NCBI GenBank assembly: GCA_017694875.1
Contig: JADIMG010000084.1
Location: 2,663-66,662, forward strand
Length of the DNA: 64,000 nucleotides
Direction: 5' to 3'
Source: Candidatus Gallipaludibacter merdavium
GTDB lineage: Bacteria > Bacteroidota > Bacteroidia > Bacteroidales > Paludibacteraceae
This document shows positions 1-12,913 of the stretch, one piece after another (within the stretch, counting starts at the first letter, position 1; every line of letters begins with the position of its first letter). The translations under genes and the position numbers were made by a program. Below the pieces are notes generated by a model. It did not search any database. It saw only the letters and a list, made by a program, of their open reading frames with translations, and had not been told where the DNA came from.

Positions 1-1821
1 CAGTCGCAAGGCATCATTTTCCCCAACATTCTGCCACCCAATGAATTGGAATATGTGATGGATGCCGATACCAGCAACCGCTTTTACGAAACGCTGAAAC
101 AACTGACCGACGGCAAGTCTGACAACAATCCCGAAGGGCAAGGCCTCCATTACGCCCGCTACCGTGCCGTGGAATTTCTGAAGCCGGAACACCGCCACAA
201 ATACAGGAATGCTGTCCATATCGGCCAGACACTGGCTGGCATCTATCGTGTGCACATGGTCAAGCGGCTGGAGAGCAGTTTCTACGCCTTCAAAAAGTCA
301 CTCCAAACCCTCCTCCGCATCACCACAGATATGATTAAGATGTTCGATGAAAACAAGGTAATCATTGCTCCCGACCTGAAGGTAAAAGACCTACAGGTCA
401 AAAACATGGAGCTTGACGAAATCATCGAATATGCCCTTGCAAAAGGATATGTTGCCGAAGACATACTTTTTACCGCCGATGCCTTCACACCCGACTTCCT
501 CCAGATGCTCCACCACGACCGCATCATTCTGGAACAGCTCAATGCAGAATGGGAACAGGAAACCAAAGACCCCAAATTCGACAAGTTCCGGGAAAACCTG
601 ACCCAAAACTTTTTCAACAAGGACATCAATCCCTCAGGCAAACTGGTGCTATTCTCCGAAAGTGTTGACACACTCCACTATCTGTACGAACGGCTGACCC
701 GCGATATAGGGCGTCGTGATGTGCTGATGGTAACAGCCGCCAACAGAAACCGCTTGACGCAAACCATCAAGGAAAATTTCGATGCCAACTTCGGCAGCGC
801 TTCCATGCACTACAACATCATCATCACTTCCGATGTTTTGGCAGAGGGTGTAAACCTCCACCGTTCCAATGTGATTGTCAATTATGATTCGCCTTGGAAT
901 GCTACCCGGCTGATGCAGCGCATTGGGCGTGTCAACCGTATCGGCTCCCTCGCTCCCAACATCTACAACTATATGTTCTACCCGTCAAAGCAAGGCGACA
1001 AGGAAATCCAGCTCTACAAGAATGCCCTTGTCAAGTTGCAGGGCTTCCATTCCGCATTTGGCGAAGACGCACAAATCTACTCCAGAGAGGAAATAGTAAA
1101 AGAGTTTCAGATGTTCGACAGCAACGTAAAGGACAGCATCGACAAGAAGATTGCCCTGTTGCGTGAAGTGCGCGAACTCTACAACCACGACCGCAAGCTC
1201 TATCACAAAATCAAGGCTCTGCCTATGAAAAGCCGTGTCATGCGCCACACGGGCAAACACAGCGGCAAGTCCGTCATATTCGTTTCATCTTCCGTAAAGA
1301 CAGAGTTCTATCTGGCTAATTCTAAAGGCATAGAAGTGATTGATTTCCTTGAGGCGGTCAAATACCTCAAAGCCCAACCCGAAGAACAGCCCGTCCCCTT
1401 CAGCAATGAAGAGCAACACTACAGACATGTCAACAGCGCCTTGGCCCGATATACCGCAGAATATGTGGAAGCGGCAGATACCTCCTCCATCAACCGTACC
1501 GACCTTGACAAGATTTCACTGGAGGCCAACAAGTTTCTGCGCACCATCAAGCAGATATGCGCCGACAGCGAACTCAAAACGCAATGCGACGTGCTGATAG
1601 GATATATCAACGAAGGCATCTATGCCCAGCTCCCCCGCTATCTGAAAACCCTGTCGCGCGAGTACAGGAACAACCGCACCAAAATCAAGCAGGACGAATA
1701 CCTTTTGCAAAACAAGATATCCGAACTGCTGGATGAATATCAGACCATGAACAGGGAGCAACGCCACGAAGCTCATGACATTTCCAACCCACAAATCATC
1801 ATTTCCGAATCATTCAAATAG
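1..1821 (+). CDS. SF2/SNF2-type helicase, C-terminal part (5' end lies upstream of the window)
   Basis: Frame 1 is open from nt 1, with no stop before the listed ATG at 46, so the gene is cut by the window edge. Helicase C-terminal motifs are present: LVLFSESVDTLHYL, IIITSDVLAEGVNLH and QRIGRVNRIG (motif VI, QxxGRxxR). The stop lies 8 nt before the methyltransferase start. Confidence 0.75.
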   Translation, partial: QSQGIIFPNILPPNELEYVMDADTSNRFYETLKQLTDGKSDNNPEGQGLHYARYRAVEFLKPEHRHKYRNAVHIGQTLAGIYRVHMVKRLESSFYAFKKSLQTLLRITTDMIKMFDENKVIIAPDLKVKDLQVKNMELDEIIEYALAKGYVAEDILFTADAFTPDFLQMLHHDRIILEQLNAEWEQETKDPKFDKFRENLTQNFFNKDINPSGKLVLFSESVDTLHYLYERLTRDIGRRDVLMVTAANRNRLTQTIKENFDANFGSASMHYNIIITSDVLAEGVNLHRSNVIVNYDSPWNATRLMQRIGRVNRIGSLAPNIYNYMFYPSKQGDKEIQLYKNALVKLQGFHSAFGEDAQIYSREEIVKEFQMFDSNVKDSIDKKIALLREVRELYNHDRKLYHKIKALPMKSRVMRHTGKHSGKSVIFVSSSVKTEFYLANSKGIEVIDFLEAVKYLKAQPEEQPVPFSNEEQHYRHVNSALARYTAEYVEAADTSSINRTDLDKISLEANKFLRTIKQICADSELKTQCDVLIGYINEGIYAQLPRYLKTLSREYRNNRTKIKQDEYLLQNKISELLDEYQTMNREQRHEAHDISNPQIIISESFK

Positions 1822-1829
1822 ACACCGCT

Positions 1830-4800
1830 ATGGCCACCACATACACATCCGACAGCATGAGACAGCTCTTCCAATCACCCTTCCACCTAACTGATTGGTA
1901 CTCGTTCCTGCAACACTTTCTCAACGCCACCGAATTGAAAGCCACTCCAGAAAAAATCATTGGCAGCCACACCGACAACGGCTACTATTTAGGATGCATT
2001 GACACCACCGACAGCTATCGCATAGGTCTGTTTCATTATCCTATTGCCCATGGCTCTGTTGTCAATAAGCGTGTAGGCCTCCGCAACCTTGTCAAGTCGT
2101 TTATCAACCCCACATGGGGTGAATTCGATGCCGCACTGGTAGTGTTCGATAGCGGCGACCATTGGCGCCTGTCGTTTATTTGCGACATCAAAGGCGAAGC
2201 CACATCACCCAAACGATATACATACGTTTTCGGTAGTCATGAACTGCTCTACAAAACCCCTATCGAACGTTTCCGTTTCTTGCAGAATAAGGGCATATCA
2301 TTTGAAAATCTGAAAACCGCCTTCTCAGTCGAAGCCCTCTCCGACGAGTTTTTCGACAAATATCGTGAACAATATGCCGACTTCATCCAATATGTTACGG
2401 GGAAACGTTTTGTCAAGGTGGGCAACAAGTGGCAGGAAAAAGTACTCGGAAGTCCCAACGCCTCACTCATGCGTGCATTCGGCCATAACGAGAAAAAGAT
2501 TCGTGACTATGTAAAGAAGATGATGGGACGCATCACATTCCTCCACTTCCTGCAACGCAAAGGATGGATGTGTGGCGACCTCAACTACATGCAAAACCTA
2601 TTTGAACACTCCCCCTACCAGCACAATTTTCTTGATGCCGTGCTCGAACCACTGTTTTTCGGCATACTGAACACCCCACCCGCCCAACGTTCAGCCTTGT
2701 TTGCCGATTATGGTTGGGACTCCTCCTTGCTTCATGAATGGCAAGATATCCCCTATCTCAATGGCGGTCTGTTTGAGCGTGACGAGGAAGACGAACCCGA
2801 AAGCCGTTTTCCTGCCGAATATTTCAAGCGTCTGTTCCAGTTTTTCAGTGAATACAATTTCACCATCGACGAAAACGACCCCAATGACGCAGAAATAGGC
2901 GTTGACCCCGAAATGCTAGGTAAAATCTTTGAAAACCTGCTGGAAGACAATAAGGACAAAGGCGCATTCTACACCCCCAAAGAGATAGTGCGCTACATGT
3001 GCCAGGAGTCGCTCATTGCCTATCTGGAAACCAACACTTCCATTACCAGCGAGAAACTCAGGAAATTTGTCCTCTCCCCCGAAGATGGAGCCGCCTATAT
3101 CCCCGACAGCCAGAAAGCCCGTCTGCTTCGCGCACTGGAAGAAGTCAAGATTTGCGACCCAGCCATCGGCTCCGGCGCATTTCCCATGGGCTTGCTGAAC
3201 GAACTGCTCCATTGTCGTGAAGCGTTGAACGGCGAGCACAACAACCGTGCAGAAATAAAAAAAAGCATCATACAAAACAATATCTATGGAGTTGACATAG
3301 AAAAAGGCGCTGTTGACATTGCGCGCCTGCGCTTTTGGCTTTCTATTGTTGTGGACGAAGAAACACCCGCTCCACTGCCCAACTTTGACTATAAGATTAT
3401 GCAAGGCAATTCGCTTATAGAGAGCTTTAAGGGCGTCGATTTGAGCCAACTCACTTACGAGAAGAGCAGTAAAAAAGACTATCGCCAACCCTTGATTTTT
3501 GATGACGAGAAAAACCGCCTGCAAAAAACCGTTTCACATCTGCTGTCCACCTATTATTCCTGCTCAGACCACGACAGAAAGATGAAACTGCAACAGGAAA
3601 TTGCCAACACCATCAAAAAACAACTGACTGTACAATCCTACGACTCTGCTATTCTACAAGAACTCCAAACCATTAATCTTGCCGAAAACGACCAGTTCTT
3701 CCTGTGGCATACTTGGTTCAGTGACGTGTTCAGTCGCGAAGATGGTAAAAATGGCTTTGATATTGTTATCGGGAATCCGCCATATTTCTTATATCAAGAA
3801 TCTCATATTGGAGAAATTAGTAACCTGCGTCGTGATAAGGACTATACTATTGCATTTGGAGGAAAATTAAATGCATATAAACTTTTTATCGCAAATGCAA
3901 TTATGAAATTATTAGCTTCAAATGGAATAAATTGCTTTATCTTTCAAAATTCATTTTTGGGAGATCGACAGGCTACTAATTTAAGAAAGTATATTCTTAG
4001 AAATAAAAAAATTATCAAGATTGATTCATTCCCTGAACGAGATAGTAAAAAAAAGCGAGTTTTTGAAAGTGTAAAAATGAGTGTGTGCATATCCTTAATA
4101 CAAAATACCAAAGTAGATAGTAATTATATCTTCCCCATACATATATGGGATGATAAATATAAATCTTCTGGATTAAATACATCTTTTTCTCTAAATGATA
4201 TTATTGCTATTGATAGTGTTGATTATACGATTCCACGTTTACGCCCAGAATACAAAACTATCGTAATAAAATTGTTGAAAAAGAAAGAAGTCACTCTTAA
4301 ATGTATTGAGGGAGAATTGAATGTAACCTTCCATAAGAAATATTTTGGTTCCAATGTGGTGAACCCTATCATTCTGAAAGGTGCTTCTATTCAACGATAT
4401 CATTATACATTTCAAATGAGTCAAGGTCAAATTGACTATCTTGAAGAAGATAAATATTTATCAGAATATGGCACAACTGATAAATCTACCCATCATAAAT
4501 TTGAAAGAATTGCTATGCAAGGAATGACAGGTGCAAATGACAAAATTAGACTTATAATGTCTATTGTACCTCAAGGATATTATTTGGCAAATTCGTGCAA
4601 TTATATACTGCCATCACAATCAACAGATCTATATTGTTTATTGGGATTCCTTAACTCTAAAACCATAAATTGGTTTTTTAGATGTTTCAGTACTAATAGT
4701 AATGTCAATGGCTATGAGGTTGATAATTTCCCTATTCCACAGTTGTCCCCAAATGCTCAAGCGACGATTTCAGAATTGGTTAAAAAGGTTATTGATGCAA

Positions 4801-4907
4801 AAACAAACAGCTCAACTGATACTTCTGCAATAGAAAAGCAAATTGATGAGCTTGTTTATCAAGCTTATGAATTATCAAAAGATGATATAAAAATCATTGA
4901 ACAATAA
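1830..4907 (+). CDS. Eco57I/type IIG-like N6-adenine DNA methyltransferase with C-terminal specificity region (1025 aa)
   Basis: SAM-binding motif I CDPAIGSGAFPMG (about nt 3150-3190). Catalytic motif IV VIGNPPYF (about nt 3766-3789). A long N-terminal extension and a roughly 370-aa C-terminal region resemble TaqI-C-like target recognition domains. Tightly linked to the upstream helicase. Confidence 0.8.
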   Translation: MATTYTSDSMRQLFQSPFHLTDWYSFLQHFLNATELKATPEKIIGSHTDNGYYLGCIDTTDSYRIGLFHYPIAHGSVVNKRVGLRNLVKSFINPTWGEFDAALVVFDSGDHWRLSFICDIKGEATSPKRYTYVFGSHELLYKTPIERFRFLQNKGISFENLKTAFSVEALSDEFFDKYREQYADFIQYVTGKRFVKVGNKWQEKVLGSPNASLMRAFGHNEKKIRDYVKKMMGRITFLHFLQRKGWMCGDLNYMQNLFEHSPYQHNFLDAVLEPLFFGILNTPPAQRSALFADYGWDSSLLHEWQDIPYLNGGLFERDEEDEPESRFPAEYFKRLFQFFSEYNFTIDENDPNDAEIGVDPEMLGKIFENLLEDNKDKGAFYTPKEIVRYMCQESLIAYLETNTSITSEKLRKFVLSPEDGAAYIPDSQKARLLRALEEVKICDPAIGSGAFPMGLLNELLHCREALNGEHNNRAEIKKSIIQNNIYGVDIEKGAVDIARLRFWLSIVVDEETPAPLPNFDYKIMQGNSLIESFKGVDLSQLTYEKSSKKDYRQPLIFDDEKNRLQKTVSHLLSTYYSCSDHDRKMKLQQEIANTIKKQLTVQSYDSAILQELQTINLAENDQFFLWHTWFSDVFSREDGKNGFDIVIGNPPYFLYQESHIGEISNLRRDKDYTIAFGGKLNAYKLFIANAIMKLLASNGINCFIFQNSFLGDRQATNLRKYILRNKKIIKIDSFPERDSKKKRVFESVKMSVCISLIQNTKVDSNYIFPIHIWDDKYKSSGLNTSFSLNDIIAIDSVDYTIPRLRPEYKTIVIKLLKKKEVTLKCIEGELNVTFHKKYFGSNVVNPIILKGASIQRYHYTFQMSQGQIDYLEEDKYLSEYGTTDKSTHHKFERIAMQGMTGANDKIRLIMSIVPQGYYLANSCNYILPSQSTDLYCLLGFLNSKTINWFFRCFSTNSNVNGYEVDNFPIPQLSPNAQATISELVKKVIDAKTNSSTDTSAIEKQIDELVYQAYELSKDDIKIIEQ

Positions 4908-4917
4908 TTTAAATAGT

Positions 4918-4957
4918 AAAAGAGCGACCTGATTTCTCAAGGTCGCTCTTTCGTTTT
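4918..4957. terminator. Bidirectional rho-independent terminator shared by the convergent methyltransferase and repeat-protein genes
   Basis: Perfect 11-bp stem aaagagcgacc (4918-4928) / ggtcgctcttt (4941-4951) with a 12-nt loop. T-rich sequence follows on both strands. It sits exactly between the two stop codons (4907 and 4956). Confidence 0.7.
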
Positions 4958-5381
4958 AATATGTGTAATCTATGAATCCTATACTAATTAGATAGTCTGC
5001 AATATCATTCATATTCCTTTTCTGTAGTTCTTTAATTAAAATATGTGGTGGAGGCCAATTACTCATATATGGGTTACTACATGGACCTGTGTAAAGTCCA
5101 CCACCGGGACCTGTGTAAAGTCCACCACCGGGACCTGTGTAAAGTCCACCACCGGGACCTGTGTAAAGTCCACCACCGGGACCTGTGTAAAGTCCACCAC
5201 CGGGACCTGTATAAAGTCCACCACCAGGACCTGTGTAAAGTCCACCACCAGGACCTGTGTAAAGTCCACCACCAGGACCTGTGTAAAGTCCACCACCGGG
5301 ACCTATGTAAAGTCCACCACCAGGACCTGTGTAAAGTCCACCACCGGGACCTATGTATCTATCTCTTGGCCATTTGTTCAT
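4956..5381 (-). CDS. Glycine-rich repeat protein: 10-aa N-terminus, 11 x GPGGGLY(T/I), 43-aa unique C-terminal domain
   Basis: The start lies 6 nt after the stop of the upstream minus-strand gene, and the terminator hairpin directly follows the stop. Of the three kinds of repeat-unit variant, two are synonymous only in this frame (Pro ccc/cct, Tyr tac/tat) and one is T->I. This supports this frame over the five other open frames. Confidence 0.7.
   Translation of the reverse strand: MNKWPRDRYIGPGGGLYTGPGGGLYIGPGGGLYTGPGGGLYTGPGGGLYTGPGGGLYTGPGGGLYTGPGGGLYTGPGGGLYTGPGGGLYTGPGGGLYTGPCSNPYMSNWPPPHILIKELQKRNMNDIADYLISIGFIDYTY
5082..5357 (-). repeat. Tandem 24-bp repeat, 11 full units plus partial units at both ends (+ strand unit tgtgtaaagtccaccaccgggacc)
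   Basis: Read directly: contiguous 24-nt units from 5088 to 5351 with only 1-2 substitutions per unit. There are no spacers, so it is not CRISPR-like. The unit length is divisible by 3, so copy-number change keeps the frame. Confidence 0.95.
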
Positions 5382-5387
5382 ATCCTA

Positions 5388-6086
5388 TCACTTATGAAGT
5401 TCTTTTCTATCTATCCAAAAAGCATTATCTGGCTTTATTATTAGAATATCAACAGGACCTCCAACCGTCTTCGTCCGCTGTTGAAATTTCATTGTATCTA
5501 TAGTGGTTTGAATTGCATATTTTGCAAAATCAATAGCATCTTGTATTGTAAAATGATTAAATGGGATAGGATAATCTGTTAAAGCATTACCACTCTGCGT
5601 ATACATTGTAGTCAATACTCTACTAAGTACATCTATTTCACCATCCCATATTGCTCCTTGAATATCTGTATCAATAGATTCTATTTTATCTATAGCGGTA
5701 AAAATTCTATATAATTTTTGTTCATATGTTTTTCCTGTGTTTATATAACCTCCAATGATAAAATCTGTATCTATTGTTTGGCATAATGCTTTGAAATATG
5801 GAATTATTTCATCTTTAATTTCATCAACACATCCATCTTTATGTTCATTGATAAAACTTTCTATATAACCTGCGATGGGTTTGTTGTTGATACTTGCTTG
5901 ACCACATGCCGAAATACCAACTCCCTTTGGAGTTAGGAATGTCTTATATGAAGAATCACTATAATGAACTCCGTTATTTTGGACTATTGTTCCATCTTGC
6001 TTATGAATAGTAGCATTGAATGTTGTTCTACTATCACTGGCCATAACAATACCTTCGCCTAAATGTAAAGCAATAATTAACGACAT
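5388..6086 (-). CDS. Proteasome beta / HslV-like Ntn-hydrolase family peptidase (232 aa)
   Basis: The N-terminus M-SLIIALHLGEGIVMASDSRTT aligns by eye with HslV [22 protein letters not shown] and with the proteasome beta TTIVG...G.V.A.D motif. Ser2 sits at the nucleophile position, with no propeptide. Later IIGGY and GGPVDILIIKPD segments fit the proteasome fold pattern. Confidence 0.55.
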   Translation of the reverse strand: MSLIIALHLGEGIVMASDSRTTFNATIHKQDGTIVQNNGVHYSDSSYKTFLTPKGVGISACGQASINNKPIAGYIESFINEHKDGCVDEIKDEIIPYFKALCQTIDTDFIIGGYINTGKTYEQKLYRIFTAIDKIESIDTDIQGAIWDGEIDVLSRVLTTMYTQSGNALTDYPIPFNHFTIQDAIDFAKYAIQTTIDTMKFQQRTKTVGGPVDILIIKPDNAFWIDRKELHK

Positions 6087-6118
6087 GCTATTTTAATAAT
6101 TTATAACTATTAAAAAAA

Positions 6119-7120
6119 TTATCTTTTGTCAATATCAATTTTTGTGATTTCATGCGAATCTACTCTTATACATTTTGCAGAACAATCATCAAACAATACA
6201 TAATTACGACCTCCTTTATGCAAAGAACTCTCAAAGCTTATTCCATCAGCCCCAACAATCCGTTTACAATATTCACAAATTAACTGAGTCGGGACATATT
6301 CTAATTCGGAATCATATCTACGAAGAGGTTTGGAAAGATCTTCACTTATGGCATCTATTATTTTTTTCTTGATGACGATTTCCTTCAGCGATGTAGTATC
6401 ATCATTATATACCAAGAATAAATTCACATCGTAAATAAAATCAACAAGTTCTAATTCACGTTCTATCCTAAATGTACCAACACTTAATTTATCTAAATAG
6501 ACTGCACGTACTTCGAAATAAGTCGTTTTTGCTGAATCACTTAAATATAAATAAGGTATTCCTATCGGGTTTGCACGACCTGCTGTTGCCAGTTCTTTAG
6601 GAGGGCACCCCATTTTATCACATTTAATTTTCTTTTGACCAACGGGTGTTATACGAGAACGATATAATTTTTGACCAACATGTAAACTCTTACCTGCTGT
6701 CAGATAATTATACTGAGCAAATTCATCCATATTGGTGAAGAAGCGGGATTTTTCTTTTACACTAGTTTTAAGTCTATCCCAAACTGCAACACGAATGCAA
6801 ATATCATCAGTGTAATCTACGAAATCAGCTATTGAGTAATCAAGATTATTTGCCTGAATAACATCAGCTAATAAAACCATTGCAACGTCTTTATCTTTAA
6901 AGAAATGCCACTCGTTCTGAATAATGTCAACGATTGTTTTATTACTATTCACTGTTGGAGAATACAATTCCAGTAAGGTAGTAAAAAATCCATAAAACTC
7001 AGAAAAATCCATAACTTTTCCTTTTCCTCCACACACTGCACAAACCCCATCACTACTACCATTTACACTAACCTCAGAACGCAATTCCTCATCATGGAAA
7101 CAATCTTTACAAATATACAT
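6119..7120 (-). CDS. RES-domain protein with N-terminal CxxC...CxxC zinc-ribbon domain (HEPN/RES-NTD1-like)
   Basis: The N-terminus is MYICKDCFHDE...GVCAVCGG, with four Cys at positions 4, 7, 27 and 30. RES signature: AGRANPIGIPYLYLSDSAKTTYFEVRA carries the Arg and Glu, and DGISFESSLHKGGRNYVLFD carries the Ser. Confidence 0.7.
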   Translation of the reverse strand: MYICKDCFHDEELRSEVSVNGSSDGVCAVCGGKGKVMDFSEFYGFFTTLLELYSPTVNSNKTIVDIIQNEWHFFKDKDVAMVLLADVIQANNLDYSIADFVDYTDDICIRVAVWDRLKTSVKEKSRFFTNMDEFAQYNYLTAGKSLHVGQKLYRSRITPVGQKKIKCDKMGCPPKELATAGRANPIGIPYLYLSDSAKTTYFEVRAVYLDKLSVGTFRIERELELVDFIYDVNLFLVYNDDTTSLKEIVIKKKIIDAISEDLSKPLRRYDSELEYVPTQLICEYCKRIVGADGISFESSLHKGGRNYVLFDDCSAKCIRVDSHEITKIDIDKR

Positions 7121-7131
7121 ACACTACATTG

Positions 7132-8076
7132 TTATAATGAAAGGATTAATTCCAAATGATTTTTAACTGACAACTTCTTCAAATACCCTAGACCTGGATA
7201 ACCATCAGGATTTTCCGCTTTTGCTATTATCTCACAAACTGCTGCTGTCTTATCTTTCTCTTTATAAAACAAAACAACCTTTCTTGCAGCTTCTCGAAAT
7301 TTTCCTCGAATATCACTATTCGTCTCGTTACTATCTGAAACAAAATGATGAACATATAACTGCTCCTCATTCTTTTTATACGAGAGATGAATAACTAAAG
7401 CGTACGGCAACATACCTCCTTCTATATATTCAGACGGCAATGTTGTATAATCTGAATAACCATCCAATTTGCCTTCATCTGCATAGAAAAATGGTTCTTC
7501 TGAAAACAACTCGTCTTCATTATACGCATAATCAGCATTACGTACCCTTGGTTTAAAACAATCATCCAATCGGATAATCTGTTTTCCTGTTTCCTTCAAT
7601 TGACTTCTCAATCTTCTTGAAATAGTAGATCCGAAAGAATTGACAATATATTCAACAGACTCATTATTGAGTATTTCCCATGCATCTTCATCATCAATAT
7701 CTATACAAGTACGAAAAATAATCATAACATGCTCAAGCTCATATTTATCAATCATTGAAGATATCTCATGAGCATTACTTTTAGAATAAAGAAAAGCAGG
7801 AATCCAGTCTTCCTTATTTGTCATTAATTTATCGTGTTGATACCATGCATCAAAATGAACTGTAGGATGTTTAAAATCTCCATCTTTCGGATTTAAAATA
7901 AGTGCAAATTTCAGTCTATTATGCATCATCTCATCTATCGCTAAAATCAATGCATTAGGTTGTTGTTTTACAGGTTCCAAGATAGGCGTTATAATTTTTT
8001 GCTCACTATGTTCTGCTGAGAACTCCCTTAAGGCCTTGAGCTCATATTGTTTTGCACGAAGATATGGATAATACAT
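7132..8076 (-). CDS. Beta-protein family (PF14350-like) / sce7725-family protein
   Basis: The N-terminus MYYPYLRAKQYELKALREF matches the characteristic start of Beta_protein/sce7725 family members as I recall it. It lies 3 nt downstream of its usual partner family (sce7726-like). Confidence 0.6.
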   Translation of the reverse strand: MYYPYLRAKQYELKALREFSAEHSEQKIITPILEPVKQQPNALILAIDEMMHNRLKFALILNPKDGDFKHPTVHFDAWYQHDKLMTNKEDWIPAFLYSKSNAHEISSMIDKYELEHVMIIFRTCIDIDDEDAWEILNNESVEYIVNSFGSTISRRLRSQLKETGKQIIRLDDCFKPRVRNADYAYNEDELFSEEPFFYADEGKLDGYSDYTTLPSEYIEGGMLPYALVIHLSYKKNEEQLYVHHFVSDSNETNSDIRGKFREAARKVVLFYKEKDKTAAVCEIIAKAENPDGYPGLGYLKKLSVKNHLELILSL

Positions 8077-8079
8077 AAT

Positions 8080-8955
8080 CTACTCTTGATTTATATTAAT
8101 ATTTAGTTGTTCCAATAACTTATTCGCTTTATCAGCTGATAAATTCAAACTCAACATCATTTGTCTAATCGGCATAGGATATTTTCGCAATAAAGATGTA
8201 TTGTTTTTACGCTTCTTTACTTCACACAAGAAAAGTTCCCTTAACTTACCTGAATCTGCTTGTAAAATAACATTGTAACAGAATTTATACATATCATAGC
8301 CATTCACTCCATCCAAAGAAATGCCTAATGATAATACTATATTCTTATATTCATCTGTTCTAAGGCAAGACATTAATGCTCTAGGATCAAAACGTTCATT
8401 ATGATGCGCAGACCTAACATCTTTAAGCACAATATGGCCATTATTCCAACTCATGGCTATAATACCAATTGTTGAATCTATAATATTGCAATACTCTTCT
8501 AATCTATTTTCTGGAACAACAATATAACATTTATCAAAAAAACACTTATAGTTTTCCATTTGTTTATCTAATCTACGAGGAGTATCATACTCGGTTTTTA
8601 TTTCAAACGCTTTACTTTCACCATTAAACATGACCATGTCAGCAATAGAATTTCCAACTTTGAATTCACTATAAAATACCGAGTTTCTTGTACCATACTT
8701 CTTAAGAAGAAGCTTTATCAACTCATTCTTATATACATACTCACATCTATAGTCTTTTGAGATTAAAGAATATGACTTTTTAAGTAAATCAAAATACGTA
8801 ACACATTTCAATGTGTTATATTTTGATACTAACCAATTAAAATGGGAATAATCATTGTAATTCAGAACATCTACAAATGCACTACGCGAAAAAGCAGAAG
8901 ATAAATCTCTCAGTCTAATCAACTCACTATTTATATTTGTAGTTGCCATAAACAA
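8080..8955 (-). CDS. sce7726-family protein, predicted PD-(D/E)xK nuclease fold
   Basis: The D...ExK motif is readable in SIADMVMFNGESKAFEIKTEYD. Size (291 aa) and pairing with a Beta-protein gene fit the sce7725/sce7726 gene pair. It is the first gene of the operon. Confidence 0.6.
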   Translation of the reverse strand: MFMATTNINSELIRLRDLSSAFSRSAFVDVLNYNDYSHFNWLVSKYNTLKCVTYFDLLKKSYSLISKDYRCEYVYKNELIKLLLKKYGTRNSVFYSEFKVGNSIADMVMFNGESKAFEIKTEYDTPRRLDKQMENYKCFFDKCYIVVPENRLEEYCNIIDSTIGIIAMSWNNGHIVLKDVRSAHHNERFDPRALMSCLRTDEYKNIVLSLGISLDGVNGYDMYKFCYNVILQADSGKLRELFLCEVKKRKNNTSLLRKYPMPIRQMMLSLNLSADKANKLLEQLNININQE

Positions 8956-8973
8956 TACCCCCTATTAATATTG

Positions 8974-8981
8974 CAAAAGTA
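8974..8981 (-). promoter_or_regulatory. Bacteroidetes sigma-AB-type -7 box (TACTTTTG on the minus strand) for the five-gene operon
   Basis: The reverse complement of 8974-8981 is tacttttg, which matches TAnnTTTG. It lies about 20 nt upstream of the ATG at 8955. Confidence 0.5.
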
Positions 8982-9077
8982 ATAATATTTTCACACAACA
9001 TAAAATTTAACAATCATTTAGTCTCTCGATTTCTAGTCCACCTTCGCTCTTTCCTATACACTTAAAAAACATTCCCA

Positions 9078-10277
9078 TCATGTACCCCTTTTAACAACTC
9101 CCTCACACAATCCCATTCTTCCCCTAAAAACAATTCCCCTACTCCCATACAACTTATTTATCCACATGGCAAATAGCCTGTCCGTTACAGAGAACACCTT
9201 GTTGATTTCCGTGATAAGGTCTTTTTCAAGTAGCTTTTTGGCAGCCGATTGTACCGAACTGGCAGAAGTGAGGCTATGGCGCCTGATAAATTCCGACGAG
9301 GTAATACGTTCCGCTTCACCATCCTTGGCAATGGCATAAAGCAATTCTTTTTGCTTTTCGGGAATGTTTGAAAGTATTTCACGGAAAATAGTATCGTTCG
9401 ATGCTATCATATTATCTATGGCTGTCTGTATGGTCTCCAGCGTGCATTCATCTCCTTCGGGGGTATCAGCAAAAGATTCATTGAACGTCTTTTGAATGTA
9501 ATAGGTGTGTCCTTGAAAGAGTGCGTAAACCTTTTCCACATCCGATTCAGCTATCGTGCGGTTGCGTTGCTTGAAATGACGGACAACGAAAGGCACATAG
9601 ATTTCTGCGGGTATGGCTTTCAGTTCCAGCATATCGGCACTATGGTAGAACGGGCGGGCAGACGACACAAACATCTCCTGCATCATGTGACGCTCACTGC
9701 CGGCAAAAATAAAATGACTATTATCCAAACGCCGTATATGGGTTCGCAACAATGCCTCAATGTTATTTTCTGGGTATTTGGCAATCTGCTGAAATTCGTC
9801 GATAGCAACAATGCAAGGCTTGTCGGCATGCGCCAAGTATTGGAAAATCTCATCAAGCGTATATTCGGGACGCTCAATATCTCCCAATTCAACATTAAAG
9901 GTTGGAAGTTGGGTAATGGGGTCAAATCCAAATTTCCCGCTAATGGATTTTATGGTCTGAATAAAGAGTGTCGCCATTTTACGGCTACGGGGCAGGAGTG
10001 TTTCGTATATTTCCCGCCCAAGCAAATATGTAAATTCCCGCAGGCTTGACGTATGCAGAATATCTATAAAGAAAGTGTAGTATGCTTTATTGATTTCTGG
10101 TTTGTCATAGCAAAACTGAATCAGACCGGTTTTACCCATACGACGAGGGGAAATAATGACCATATTATTTCCGTTGGTAATCGACTTGATAAGCCGTGCA
10201 GATTCACTTACACGGTCACAAAAATATTCCGGTGCAATCTTTCCGGTTACTACGAATGGATTTATTGTTTTTGCCAT
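9078..10277 (-). CDS. AAA-type ATP-binding protein (Arch_ATPase + DUF234-like)
   Basis: Walker A IISPRRMGKTGL and Walker B CIVAIDEFQ. The N-terminus NPFVVTGKIAPEYFCDR is typical of this Bacteroidales ATPase family. The C-terminus resembles a winged helix. Confidence 0.7.
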   Translation of the reverse strand: MAKTINPFVVTGKIAPEYFCDRVSESARLIKSITNGNNMVIISPRRMGKTGLIQFCYDKPEINKAYYTFFIDILHTSSLREFTYLLGREIYETLLPRSRKMATLFIQTIKSISGKFGFDPITQLPTFNVELGDIERPEYTLDEIFQYLAHADKPCIVAIDEFQQIAKYPENNIEALLRTHIRRLDNSHFIFAGSERHMMQEMFVSSARPFYHSADMLELKAIPAEIYVPFVVRHFKQRNRTIAESDVEKVYALFQGHTYYIQKTFNESFADTPEGDECTLETIQTAIDNMIASNDTIFREILSNIPEKQKELLYAIAKDGEAERITSSEFIRRHSLTSASSVQSAAKKLLEKDLITEINKVFSVTDRLFAMWINKLYGSRGIVFRGRMGLCEGVVKRGT

Positions 10278-10753
10278 GCGAACATCAGTTTATGCAAAGA
10301 TGATTATTTTATTTGAATTATGCAAATCGAATGATTTCAAACAAAACAAAGTTCTTCGTTCAAATCACTTGCATGATATTCCCGTTTGGCAACCCCGCTA
10401 TTGTTGAAAGTATCTGTTTGCCCCTCTCCATCTTATCAGCATCCTCCACCCTTTTCACTACACGTTGCAAACAGAAAAAAGAATTTGCATATCCACCTTG
10501 AATTTTCATATCAAACTCATGTTCTTTTAAAGTCTTATTCCTATATTTGCAAATATTTAAACGCAAAGACATTCTATGAGTATCAACAAGCACCACAATT
10601 GTATACAAAAAAATCATGTAAAAAACAATAACAGAGGGAGTCACAAGCACGCCCATACTCAGGAATAAAGTTTGCAAGAACGTTTTGGTGATAAAAGTAA
10701 GGATATTAACAAACGATAGAAGCAGATTTGGTATATAAAAAGTAATTGAAGCA

Positions 10754-11485
10754 ATGAATAAATATAACAAACAATTAAACAATTGCATACAGACCATTGA
10801 GCGTATTAGTAACATGATTAATTTGCAACACATTTCAAGTGAAGAAATTAGTTATAATGAGCTTTATAATGATCTATATCAATTGATATCGCTTATACCA
10901 CAAGAATATCATATTTTTCGAGATCGACTAAGAGACAATATTTTGCCAAATTTAAAAATACCAGACCAAGTAACAAAAGCCAGAAATGGACAACTATTTG
11001 TTACCCCAAGAAATGGTATCAATCCTTATTCATTTGGTGAGGTTATTGCAACTATTGCATATCTAAAAGGTAATGGTAACAACAACTCCCCATCAATTTG
11101 GGACAATATCCACCCACAAATTAGCATGGTTGCTAAAAGTCGTTATGATAATGGGCATTATGCTGATGCAGTAGAAGCGGCATTCAAGGAAGTAAACACC
11201 CGAGTTAAAAACATATATAAAATTAGAACGTCAATTGAAAAGGATGGTGCCAAATTAATGCAAGCTGCATTTTCAGTTCATAATCCAGTTATTAAGATCG
11301 GAGATCTTTCAACAGAAACTGGTATTAACATTCAACAAGGATATATGGAAATGTTTGCAGGAGCAATGATAGGGATTAGAAATCCTAAAGCACATTGCAA
11401 CCAAACAATCTCAAAAGCAGACGCAACTAGAAAATTACATTTTGCCAGCATGCTAATGTACAAACTAAATGATGAAATTATTTAA
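10754..11485 (+). CDS. HEPN-domain protein of the Ymh/TIGR02391 type
   Basis: C-terminal HEPN Rx4-6H motif in GAMIGIRNPKAHCNQ. The gene is AT-rich and located in the defence-gene neighbourhood. Confidence 0.6.
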   Translation: MNKYNKQLNNCIQTIERISNMINLQHISSEEISYNELYNDLYQLISLIPQEYHIFRDRLRDNILPNLKIPDQVTKARNGQLFVTPRNGINPYSFGEVIATIAYLKGNGNNNSPSIWDNIHPQISMVAKSRYDNGHYADAVEAAFKEVNTRVKNIYKIRTSIEKDGAKLMQAAFSVHNPVIKIGDLSTETGINIQQGYMEMFAGAMIGIRNPKAHCNQTISKADATRKLHFASMLMYKLNDEII

Positions 11486-11536
11486 CCACCTTAATTGAAT
11501 ATCTTCAAAGAAAAAACCACGATTACATCTTTCAAT

Positions 11537-12913
11537 ATGACAGAAAACAACCGCATAGAATTTAAAAGAGAACTGACTAACGAACTTGATATAGAAAAAG
11601 AGATTGTGGCATTCCTTAATTACAAGGAAGGGGGATATATCTACATTGGCATTGACAATGACGGAAGGACCATAGGAGTAAACGACGTGGATGACTGTAT
11701 GCTGAAATTGAAAGAACGTATCAAACACAATATATCTCCTTCTGCAATGGGTCTGTTTGATATTGCAGAGGAACAAAAAGACGGACATAGCATTATCAAG
11801 GTTACAGTAGCAAGCGGTATTGAGAAACCATATTTCAAAACAAGATATGGAATGACGCCACGAGGTGCATATATGCGGATTGGGACATCGGCTGAACCTA
11901 TGCCGCAAGAACAGATTGACCGTCTGTTTGCTATGCGGACACGTAATTCCATTGGTCGAATAGTGTCAAACCGACAGGATTTGAGTTTTGAACAGTTGCG
12001 TATCTATTACGATGAACGAGGAAAAAGGCTCAACGACAATTTCAAACGAACATTGGAATTGCTTACTGAAGATGGGAAATACAATTATGTAGCCTATCTT
12101 CTGGCTGACGAGAACGGAAATTCTATCAAAGTGGCAAAGTATTCAAGTCTAGACCGCTGTGATTTGGTGGAGAACAACGAATACGGATATTGTTCTCTCA
12201 TAAAAGCGACCAAGAGTGTGTTGGCCAAACTGGATATAGAAAACAAAGTTGCCGCCACCATTACATCTATGGAGCGCATTGAAACCCCTTTGTGGAACAA
12301 GGTTGCTTTGCGCGAAGCGGTTATCAATGCGATTGTACATAACGATTACTCCTTTGAAGTGCCACCCAAATTTGAAATATTTCCCGACAGACTGGAGATA
12401 ACTTCAGCAGGACGTTTGCCGGAATCCCTCTCCAAAGAGGAATTTTTCAATGGTATATCAATTCCACGCAACAAGGAGCTGATGAGAATTTATCGCGATT
12501 TGGAACTGGTAGAATCGTTAGGCTCTGGCATCCCTCGTATTCTGAAAGCCTATGGCGAAGAATGCTTCAAATTTACCGACAATTTTATCCGCATTACTTT
12601 TCCTATTACTGCTCATGATACTAACAGTGACCATGCAAGTGACCATGCAAGTGACCATGCAAGTGACCATGCAAGCACACAAGTAAGAAAGCTCATTTCT
12701 ATTCTTGCCGGAGAGAAAGGGCGTTCAGAACTACAAGAATTGTTGTCGATTAAAAATAGAGATTATTTTAGAACTGATTATTTACTCCCTGCAATTAATA
12801 ACGGCTATATAGAGCCAACTGTGCCTGATAAGCCCAATAGTCAAAACCAGAAATATCGCCTTACTGCAAAAGGTTTAGCATTGAAGGAGAGTTTGAAGAA
12901 TAGCAAACAGTGA
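11537..12913 (+). CDS. AlbA_2 (Schlafen-like) DNA-binding domain + HATPase_c_4-like domain + C-terminal wHTH protein (often mislabelled RecG-like)
   Basis: NNRIEFKREL...IVAFLNYKEGGYIYIGIDNDGRTIGV is the AlbA_2 signature. ALREAVINAIVHNDYS is the HATPase_c_4-like signature. The ORF-track start at 11495 is a TTG; the first ATG (MTENNRIEFK) is at 11537. Confidence 0.7.
   Translation: MTENNRIEFKRELTNELDIEKEIVAFLNYKEGGYIYIGIDNDGRTIGVNDVDDCMLKLKERIKHNISPSAMGLFDIAEEQKDGHSIIKVTVASGIEKPYFKTRYGMTPRGAYMRIGTSAEPMPQEQIDRLFAMRTRNSIGRIVSNRQDLSFEQLRIYYDERGKRLNDNFKRTLELLTEDGKYNYVAYLLADENGNSIKVAKYSSLDRCDLVENNEYGYCSLIKATKSVLAKLDIENKVAATITSMERIETPLWNKVALREAVINAIVHNDYSFEVPPKFEIFPDRLEITSAGRLPESLSKEEFFNGISIPRNKELMRIYRDLELVESLGSGIPRILKAYGEECFKFTDNFIRITFPITAHDTNSDHASDHASDHASDHASTQVRKLISILAGEKGRSELQELLSIKNRDYFRTDYLLPAINNGYIEPTVPDKPNSQNQKYRLTAKGLALKESLKNSKQ
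12626..12673 (+). repeat. Perfect 4 x 12-bp tandem repeat (agtgaccatgca) encoding (SDHA)4 in a linker
   Basis: Read directly from the sequence. It is in frame inside the AlbA_2 protein gene. Confidence 0.95.

Follow-up and report, generated by a model that had tools for sequence, protein, structure and literature searches.

What does a pair of sce7726- and sce7725-family genes do when it is followed, in the same operon, by a gene for a RES-domain enzyme? We asked this of a locus in Candidatus Gallipaludibacter merdavium (Bacteroidales), in a stretch of 64,000 nucleotides (nt) that we call the window (contig JADIMG010000084.1 of assembly GCA_017694875.1, positions 2,663 to 66,662 of the forward strand). 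A first-pass annotation of the window had described the pair as obligate and of unknown function, extended by three further genes and lying in a defence island, with a role in nucleic-acid sensing or cleavage during phage conflict. We find that three of the five genes, g1, g2 and g3, make up a mobile, self-contained three-gene unit (6119-8949, minus strand). This triad is probably a RES-armed relative of the gop-beta-cII system of phage P4, an abortive-infection cassette in which a RES effector that depletes nicotinamide adenine dinucleotide (NAD+) would stand under the control of g1 and g2. The five genes are:

g1, 8080..8949, minus strand: 289 amino acids (aa) from the ATG at 8949; an sce7726 / P4-cII-family protein.
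g2, 7132..8076, minus strand: 314 aa; an sce7725-family protein with a predicted TIM-barrel-like fold.
g3, 6119..7120, minus strand: 333 aa; an effector candidate with an N-terminal zinc-ribbon/HEPN_RES_NTD1-like part and a C-terminal RES domain.
g4, 5388..6086, minus strand: 232 aa; a predicted N-terminal nucleophile (Ntn) hydrolase resembling proteasome beta subunits and Anbu.
g5, 4956..5381, minus strand: 141 aa; 11 tandem GPGGGLYT repeats and a short C-terminal domain.

Both open reading frames (ORFs) of the pair, 8080..8955 and 7132..8076, are read from the minus strand, with 3 nt (8077-8079) between them. The two sequences that had been quoted for them, ADMVMFNGESKAFEIK and MYYPYLRAKQYELKALREF, are both present. 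At its full extent the g1 ORF opens with a TTG at 8955 and encodes 291 aa. As the 289-aa product is also called on public contigs with an identical locus, the true start is likely the ATG at 8949. All five genes are read from one strand, with successive gaps of 3, 11, 32 and 6 nt.

The triad is conserved well beyond the window. We assembled 80 loci from a scan of one genome per species, in which the identity of g2 runs from 82 to 39%, and five more from protein look-ups. The scanned loci come mostly from Bacteroidota, with a minority from Ignavibacteriales, Cloacimonadota, Clostridia, Izemoplasmatales and Gastranaerophilales. In 81 loci the contig reaches beyond g2; 80 of these have the order g1-g2-g3, with the genes overlapping or a few nt apart, and in two of the 80 (L006 and L026) the RES gene is disrupted. 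The lone exception, L057, has the sce7726-sce7725 pair without a RES gene, flanked by two serine recombinases. The same triad occurs in Alpha-, Beta- and Gammaproteobacteria: on plasmids of Shinella, Rhizobium and Moraxella, where it is annotated 'sce7726 / sce7725 / RES family NAD+ phosphorylase', in Ralstonia, where a megaplasmid carries it, and in Salmonella houtenae, where it adjoins genes of an integrative and conjugative element (ICE). The Salmonella copy, from S. enterica subsp. houtenae ATCC BAA-1581, spans 375133-378001 of AGRM01000005.1 (SEHO0A_04578-04580). About 13 distinct IMG/VR loci show this order as well. RES, peptidase and repeat genes do follow the pair on the same strand, as the first-pass annotation had it, but the RES gene is no local add-on, being the regular third gene of these related loci. 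Among the 128 proteins that flank 32 of the triads we found no conserved fourth gene; what recurs there are integrases, resolvases, type I restriction-modification (R-M) subunits, McrB-like ATPases and housekeeping genes.

Grouped at 50% identity, relatives of sce7725 as a whole give 1029 clusters, and a gene for one is present in at least 581 stretches of the species-representative genomes. Among more distant members the layouts are more diverse. A P4-type layout, with a short cII gene convergent with beta, is found in Rhodococcus and Bacillus cereus plasmids; sce7726-sce7725 pairs without RES occur in prophage and phage gene sets, part of them in reversed order; and solo sce7726 genes exist in Mycobacterium and Monoglobus. 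On the Enterococcus faecium plasmid p114-2 (L150:3306-5513), a 229-aa D...ELK protein that our sce7726 profile does not recognise is followed by sce7725 and, 44 nt on, by a GNAT acetyltransferase. The stretch recurs, almost unchanged, on a contig named 'Listeria phage LM 4-14-1' (L152), whose record carries an 'unverified' mark. The acetyltransferase may be a third type of effector. An IMG/VR contig (L148:6001-6710) has a truncated sce7725 ORF followed directly by an 83-aa protein with one transmembrane helix and a coiled coil, which recalls P4 Gop. Given the layouts without RES, with solo genes, of P4 type and with GNAT among distant members, the third gene varies across the superfamily and is RES in the subfamily of the window.

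The first gene ties the triad to P4 cII. g1 scores 165.8 bits against NCBIfam NF033832 (sce7726_fam; cut-off 70) over profile positions 1-183 of 184, and 81.9 bits against the PADLOC 'cll' model that stands for the cII component of gop-beta-cII. P4 cII itself reaches 375.9 bits on the PADLOC model and 151 bits on sce7726_fam, and its RefSeq name is 'sce7726 family protein'. By BLASTP the two proteins share 27% identity (E 1e-18), and a precomputed Pfam table lists a match of PF26915 (Phage_P4_cII) to a protein identical to g1. In an alignment of 32 family members, P4 cII included, D104, E116 and K118 (289-aa numbering) are invariant and E95 is almost so; among 75 closer homologues E95 is invariant too. 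The fuller set of E95, D104, E116-x-K118, D122, R126 and Q130-xxx-Y134 is conserved both in these 75 and in the alignment with P4 cII and Gram-positive sequences. We take the E/D/ExK/QxxxY pattern to be the motif set of RecB/Cas4-type PD-(D/E)xK nucleases, and the D...ExK motif singled out by the first-pass annotation as PD-(D/E)xK is upheld by these family alignments. As neither g1 nor its family profile matched any protein in a PDB sequence search, and the family matched no Pfam profile in a copy apparently without PF26915, we infer the nuclease fold of g1 from the motifs. At their N-terminus, proteins of the g1 type also have an additional stretch of about 70 aa, which the alignment shows to be absent from P4 cII. 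Searches of Pfam and NCBIfam gave no helix-turn-helix (HTH) or DUF2384 match in g1 or g2.

The second gene is related to P4 beta, at a greater distance. g2 is a clear sce7725 protein, with 264.6 bits against NCBIfam NF033831 (sce7725_fam; cut-off 60) over profile positions 1-309 of 312, so that both NCBIfam identities proposed for the pair hold. Its assignment to Beta_protein stands less well: g2 does match Pfam PF14350, but weakly, with 25.3 bits against a gathering threshold of 27 and over residues 2-52 only. A PF14350 match is precomputed for many close homologues of g2. The PADLOC 'beta' model (PDLC02985) gave no match to g2 at E<=0.01. Direct BLASTP and hidden Markov model (HMM) comparison of g2 with P4 beta aligned the N-terminal YYPxLR...E motif alone (E 0.05, 12.8 bits), and profile-profile comparison was therefore needed to address their homology. 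Using hhalign, we compared an alignment of 92 sce7725 sequences (A2) with one of 52 P4-beta sequences (A3), and the two families aligned over 273 columns with 83.5% probability and an E of 8.4e-6. A 'beta family protein' of a B. cereus plasmid matches both profiles; P4 beta, the founder of the Beta_protein family, goes by the same name in RefSeq. From its sub-threshold PF14350 score together with the hhalign result, we regard g2 as a superfamily relative and not a Pfam member. These comparisons point to g2 as a divergent member of the P4 beta superfamily, remotely homologous over its full length.

The AlphaFold2 (AF2) model of g2 (pLDDT 95.6) has a TIM-barrel-like domain of alternating strands and helices with a helical extension at the C-terminus. 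Its PDB neighbours are generic TIM barrels with template modelling (TM) scores of about 0.4, among them glycoside hydrolases (GH) of families GH123, GH84 (O-GlcNAcase) and GH18 and aldolases; among viral proteins only one matches well, from a Gordonia phage and itself uncharacterised (TM 0.64). Searches of PDB sequences with g2 and its family profile returned nothing usable. In the alignment, the polar residues R7, E34, N62, D172 and D209 are invariant or nearly so, and the model places them directly behind barrel strands, where they would occupy the usual active-site position of TIM barrels.

The third gene encodes the putative effector. g3 matches Pfam RES (PF08808) with 49.4 bits (cut-off 23.2), as do all 29 of the family members searched, and its RES triad of R182, E203 and S298 is intact and invariant in 77 homologues; homologues of g3 go by the name 'RES family NAD+ phosphorylase' in RefSeq. 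Its N-terminal part has a CxxC...CxxC arrangement with conserved C4, C7, C27 and C30, of which C7, C27 and C30 are invariant. PF18870 (HEPN_RES_NTD1) is matched by 18 of the 29 family members, with a best E of 1.4e-5. Nothing usable came from PDB sequence searches with g3 and its family profile. We also considered g3 as a relative of Gop and rejected this, as comparison shows the two to be unrelated. A faint match of Gop to the CxxC model TIGR04402 is meaningless, since Gop has no such cysteines.

How far, then, is the triad a known system? gop-beta-cII of P4 (Ghisotti et al., 1990, cited in PMC9122126) protects E. coli against lambda and P1 by abortive infection (Rousset et al., 2022, PMC9122126). 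The toxic component in P4 is Gop, not cII, and it is toxic when beta is missing (PMC9122126). Cell death by way of the system is set off by orf184, an accessory gene of a phage (10.1101/2023.04.06.535777). As P4 cII is an sce7726-family protein and P4 beta founded its family, to call the pair one of 'unknown function' is outdated. To call it 'obligate' was too strong, given the solo sce7726 genes and a beta-family protein that works without cII in PD-lambda-2. Like gop-beta-cII, the triad is a three-gene cassette found on mobile elements, with one component from the NCBIfam family of P4 cII and another that is a remote full-length homologue of P4 beta. The two differ in their third gene, which in P4 encodes Gop (133 aa, with two transmembrane helices) and in the window a 333-aa RES enzyme; we found no Gop homologue among the 90 loci examined. 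They differ as well in arrangement, with cII convergent with gop-beta in P4 and the cII-like, beta-like and RES genes co-directional in the window, in the extra N-terminal region of g1, and in the failure of g2 to reach the Pfam threshold or match the PADLOC 'beta' model. Of the triad, PADLOC-DB v2.0.0 recognises g1 alone. Our literature searches found no mechanistic study of beta, cII or gop-beta-cII, and sce7725 and sce7726 are named in only a few papers, as entries in lists.

The other half of the comparison concerns the effector. aRES proteins combine RES with PF18870 and defend by NAD+ phosphorolysis, which yields nicotinamide and ADP-ribose-1''-phosphate (ADPR-1''-phosphate) and arrests growth (Osterman et al., bioRxiv 10.64898/2026.01.28.702374). 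They are defined by RES plus PF18870 (HHsearch probability >80%) and a length of 300-600 aa, and those studied stand alone, 'not operonically associated' (10.64898/2026.01.28.702374). g3 resembles them in its intact RES triad, in a family of which 18 of 29 members match PF18870, in its length and in its defence-island setting. Unlike them, it lies 11 nt after g2 in a conserved operon. PD-lambda-2 also contains a beta-family protein, PD-lambda-2C, to whose model P4 beta matches with E 8e-14 and g2 weakly with E 0.0086. Vassallo et al. (2022, PMC9519451) found this beta-like third component to be needed for defence and not for toxin neutralisation. The system is completed by a HigB-like protein and an Xre-peptidase fusion, with no cII-like nuclease and no RES protein. 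Finally, RES-Xre and MbcTA are classic toxin-antitoxin (TA) systems with RES toxins (10.64898/2026.01.28.702374). With these and ParST the triad shares a RES-domain toxin predicted to degrade NAD+ or transfer ADP-ribose. It differs in having no Xre/DUF2384-type antitoxin in the operon, in the extra zinc-ribbon domain at the N-terminus of g3 and in two unrelated partner proteins. The triad thus falls outside both gop-beta-cII proper and aRES as described, and shares components with both.

These comparisons are consistent with a model, which we consider probable, in which the triad aborts infection by depleting NAD+. In the uninfected cell, g2, possibly together with g1, would hold the RES enzyme inactive, mirroring the neutralisation of Gop by beta. 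The g1/g2 module would then sense a phage cue, either a phage protein, as with orf184, or the DNA of the phage, which g1 with its predicted nuclease fold would recognise. The RES enzyme, once released or activated, would convert NAD+ to nicotinamide and ADPR-1''-phosphate, as do aRES and MbcT, and the collapse of NAD+ would stop growth and abort the infection. Of the nucleic-acid sensing or cleavage that had been proposed for the pair, a sensing role of g1 remains plausible, but killing is likely to come from NAD+ depletion by RES. We are much surer of what the parts are than of how they would be regulated.

Several points weigh against this model. Every functional step in it is drawn by analogy. 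Gop is a two-transmembrane protein unrelated to RES, so that beta-type control of a RES enzyme is an extrapolation. The neutralising role of g2 is uncertain, because the beta homologue of PD-lambda-2 is not an antitoxin; g2 looks like an enzyme, and its PDB matches are generic TIM barrels only. As the studied aRES proteins act alone, g1 and g2 may be dispensable for RES activation. It is from its motifs that g1 is assigned a PD-(D/E)xK fold, and the window's own g3 reaches only E 0.62 and 10.8 bits on PF18870, against a cut-off of 27.4. Lastly, the defence-island enrichment that the first-pass annotation had proposed to score is only modest: by a rough estimate from the 128 flanking proteins, made by family and not by per-protein match, triad flanks are slightly enriched in defence and mobile-element functions, and housekeeping genes are included in those flanks.

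What of g4 and g5, which the first-pass annotation had counted, as a peptidase and a repeat protein, among the extensions of the pair? The AF2 model of g4 (pLDDT 84.8) has 368 PDB matches in Foldseek at E<=1e-3, and each of the best 50 (TM 0.53-0.64) is a 20S beta subunit or Anbu, so that the label of peptidase is reasonable. In sequence the contact is weak, with E 0.021 between the g4 family profile and proteasome beta subunits among PDB sequences. Of 31 aligned sequences, 30 have Ser at residue 2 and one has Thr; this residue is the predicted nucleophile after removal of Met1. D18 and K48 are invariant. With the fold, a Ser/Thr nucleophile and equivalents of Asp17 and Lys33, g4 has the marks of an Ntn hydrolase, its catalysis being a prediction. 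It belongs to a large uncharacterised family. g5 matched no family in NCBIfam, Pfam or PADLOC searches. Two further features belong to this end of the operon:

24-nt tandem repeat, 5083..5357, no strand: 11.5 copies with 96% matches, encoding the g5 repeats.
Inverted repeat, 4919..4951, no strand: a perfect 12-bp stem with a 9-nt loop, read from the sequence.

The copy number of the 24-nt repeat differs between otherwise identical public contigs, giving a g5 of 141 aa in L007 and 125 aa in L008, which suggests ongoing slippage or recombination. The inverted repeat, probably a terminator that works in both directions, sits between the stop of g5 and that of a convergent methyltransferase gene; our terminator scanner missed it, as its loop of 9 nt exceeds the scanner limit of 8. 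Given the gaps of 32 and 6 nt and this sole terminator-like hairpin after g5, g4 and g5 are probably co-transcribed with the triad.

They are nonetheless not part of it. g4 and g5 stand beside the triad only in window-type loci and in L011, are absent from the other 79 complete triad loci, and are missing from the proteobacterial triads. In L110 and L111 a g4 homologue followed by a g5-like repeat protein lies on a mobilisable element with a relaxase and no triad (L110:5001-6129). In L108 (5001-5786) a g4 homologue stands next to an AAA_14/DUF4143 ATPase, and the start of a g5-like repeat protein follows. Across copies of the module, g4 and g5 are 4-6 nt apart. Distant g4 homologues occur alone within type I R-M operons, between hsdM and hsdS, or within type IIG ones, beside MmeI/Eco57I-type methyltransferases; a Fic gene is often close to them. 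g4 and g5 are a separate two-gene module placed beside the triad, and the extension of the pair by a peptidase and a repeat protein, found in only one locus outside those of window type, does not hold for the family. A five-gene system in line with the first-pass annotation, with nuclease, beta protein, RES enzyme, peptidase and repeat protein acting together and the peptidase processing or activating a component, could call on the shared strand, the gaps of 3, 11, 32 and 6 nt, the single hairpin after g5 and the identical five-gene order in L011. Set against the 79 complete triads and the proteobacterial ones that do without g4 and g5, the copies of the module that do without a triad, on a mobilisable element and beside an unrelated ATPase, and the distant g4 homologues housed in R-M operons, it is highly improbable.

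Other explanations take the same three genes and arrange them differently. The triad could be a plain addiction module that stabilises plasmids, ICEs and prophages, with RES as toxin, g2 and/or g1 as antidote and no part in phage defence. RES toxins are indeed classic TA toxins, as in RES-Xre and MbcTA, triads are carried on plasmids and lie near ICE genes, integrases and resolvases, and some of their flanks hold housekeeping genes. We think this unlikely, as phage protection has been measured both for the homologous P4 module and for proteins that combine RES with PF18870, the window copy sits among defence genes, and the operon has no Xre/HTH antitoxin; many TA modules serve both purposes, so addiction would not exclude defence. 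Alternatively, g1 itself could be the effector, cutting phage or host DNA, with g2 as sensor or regulator and with RES, Gop and other third genes as optional effectors. This would account for the invariance or near-invariance of E95, D104, ExK and QxxxY across the family, for the RES-less pairs, some reversed, in prophage and phage gene sets, and for L057, which retains the pair without RES. It fits poorly with a RES gene in 80 of the 81 informative loci of the window's subfamily, with Gop and not cII being toxic in P4, and with PD-lambda-2 functioning with a beta homologue and no cII, and we hold it to be quite unlikely.

Two more readings centre on g2 and its relatives. g2 could be an enzymatic antidote, as DarG is to DarT, that reverses or consumes a product of RES, such as an ADP-ribosylated target or ADPR-1''-phosphate, until infection blocks it. 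Polar residues at the strand ends of the g2 barrel and its weak structural neighbours among glycoside hydrolases (GH84 O-GlcNAcase, GH123 and GH18) would suit such a role, as would the fact that some RES-family toxins, such as ParT, ADP-ribosylate protein targets. The TM scores of about 0.4 are unspecific, though, and the superfamily also partners Gop, a membrane protein, and HigB/Xre-peptidase, neither of which makes an ADP-ribose product. As beta shares with g2 the YYPxLR...E motif and the D209 aspartate, a common function independent of the effector can be argued, and we regard the antidote as very unlikely. A bolder alternative, possible though doubtful, is that the beta/sce7725 barrel, usually with a cII-type partner, is a conserved and catalytically active phage-sensing module with interchangeable killers: Gop in P4, HigB/Xre-peptidase in PD-lambda-2, RES in the triad and possibly GNAT on the Enterococcus plasmid. 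Were the barrel to produce, break down or sense a small molecule or a modification of nucleic acids, the outcome would be an undescribed sensing logic common to a family of abortive-infection systems across many phyla. The reading we prefer is still that of an NAD+-depleting RES effector controlled by g1 and g2.

The surroundings of the triad are rich in defence genes, as had been claimed, with a PLD-SNF2 helicase, a type IIG-like methyltransferase and a Hypoth_Ymh/HEPN protein in the window. On the plus strand, 46-4907 encodes a 1097-aa PLD + SNF2/ResIII helicase, cut by the window start, followed by a 1025-aa Eco57I/MmeI-type adenine methyltransferase that is type IIG-like or BREX/DISARM-like and convergent with the triad operon; both genes are complete in L007:13170-19549. 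These two look like a separate R-M-like or DISARM-like defence pair. Further on, 10754-12913 (plus strand) encodes a Hypoth_Ymh/HEPN-like protein (PADLOC PD-Lambda-3_B, 45 bits) and then a Schlafen-type protein with AlbA_2, HATPase_c_4 and Fic-like_C domains. The defence-type island spans about 13 kb of the window, up to a gene for a MatE transporter. The gene immediately upstream of the triad, 9078-10277 (minus strand), encodes a protein of the ATPase_2/AAA_14 type whose C-terminus is a MarR-like winged helix. We considered this gene as a part of the system and rejected it: it is separated by a gap of 128 nt, has a higher GC content (0.43 against 0.30-0.33) and is not among the recurring families that flank other triad loci, so that it is probably independent. 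The gap holds one more candidate feature:

TACTTTTG, 8974..8981, minus strand: a candidate -7 promoter box of the form TAnnTTTG, read from the sequence.

It lies 25 nt 5' of the g1 ATG and matches what we take to be the Bacteroides-type -7 promoter consensus, TAnnTTTG; a sigma-70 promoter and terminator scan is uninformative for Bacteroidales sequence. The three-gene cassette has a GC content of 30-34%, against 41% for the whole window. More broadly, GC is 0.33-0.37 across 4000-12000, compared with 0.41 in the whole window and 0.43-0.49 in the flanks of this region, which is consistent with horizontally acquired DNA.

Collectively, our data correct the database lore of an 'obligate pair of unknown function', in that the family is mostly a three-gene system. 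The triad links two systems that have been studied separately, gop-beta-cII, which has no known mechanism, and aRES, whose chemistry is known and whose trigger is not, and on this view a cII/beta module should be able to govern a RES NADase. RES activity can be read as NAD+ loss and as ADPR-1''-phosphate, which would make it easy to assay, with the triad, what is sensed by the barrel of the beta family and by the cII protein. The triad is widespread in Bacteroidota, in Proteobacteria and in other phyla, and it occurs in the Bacteroidales of the gut, a group whose defence systems have seen little experimental work.

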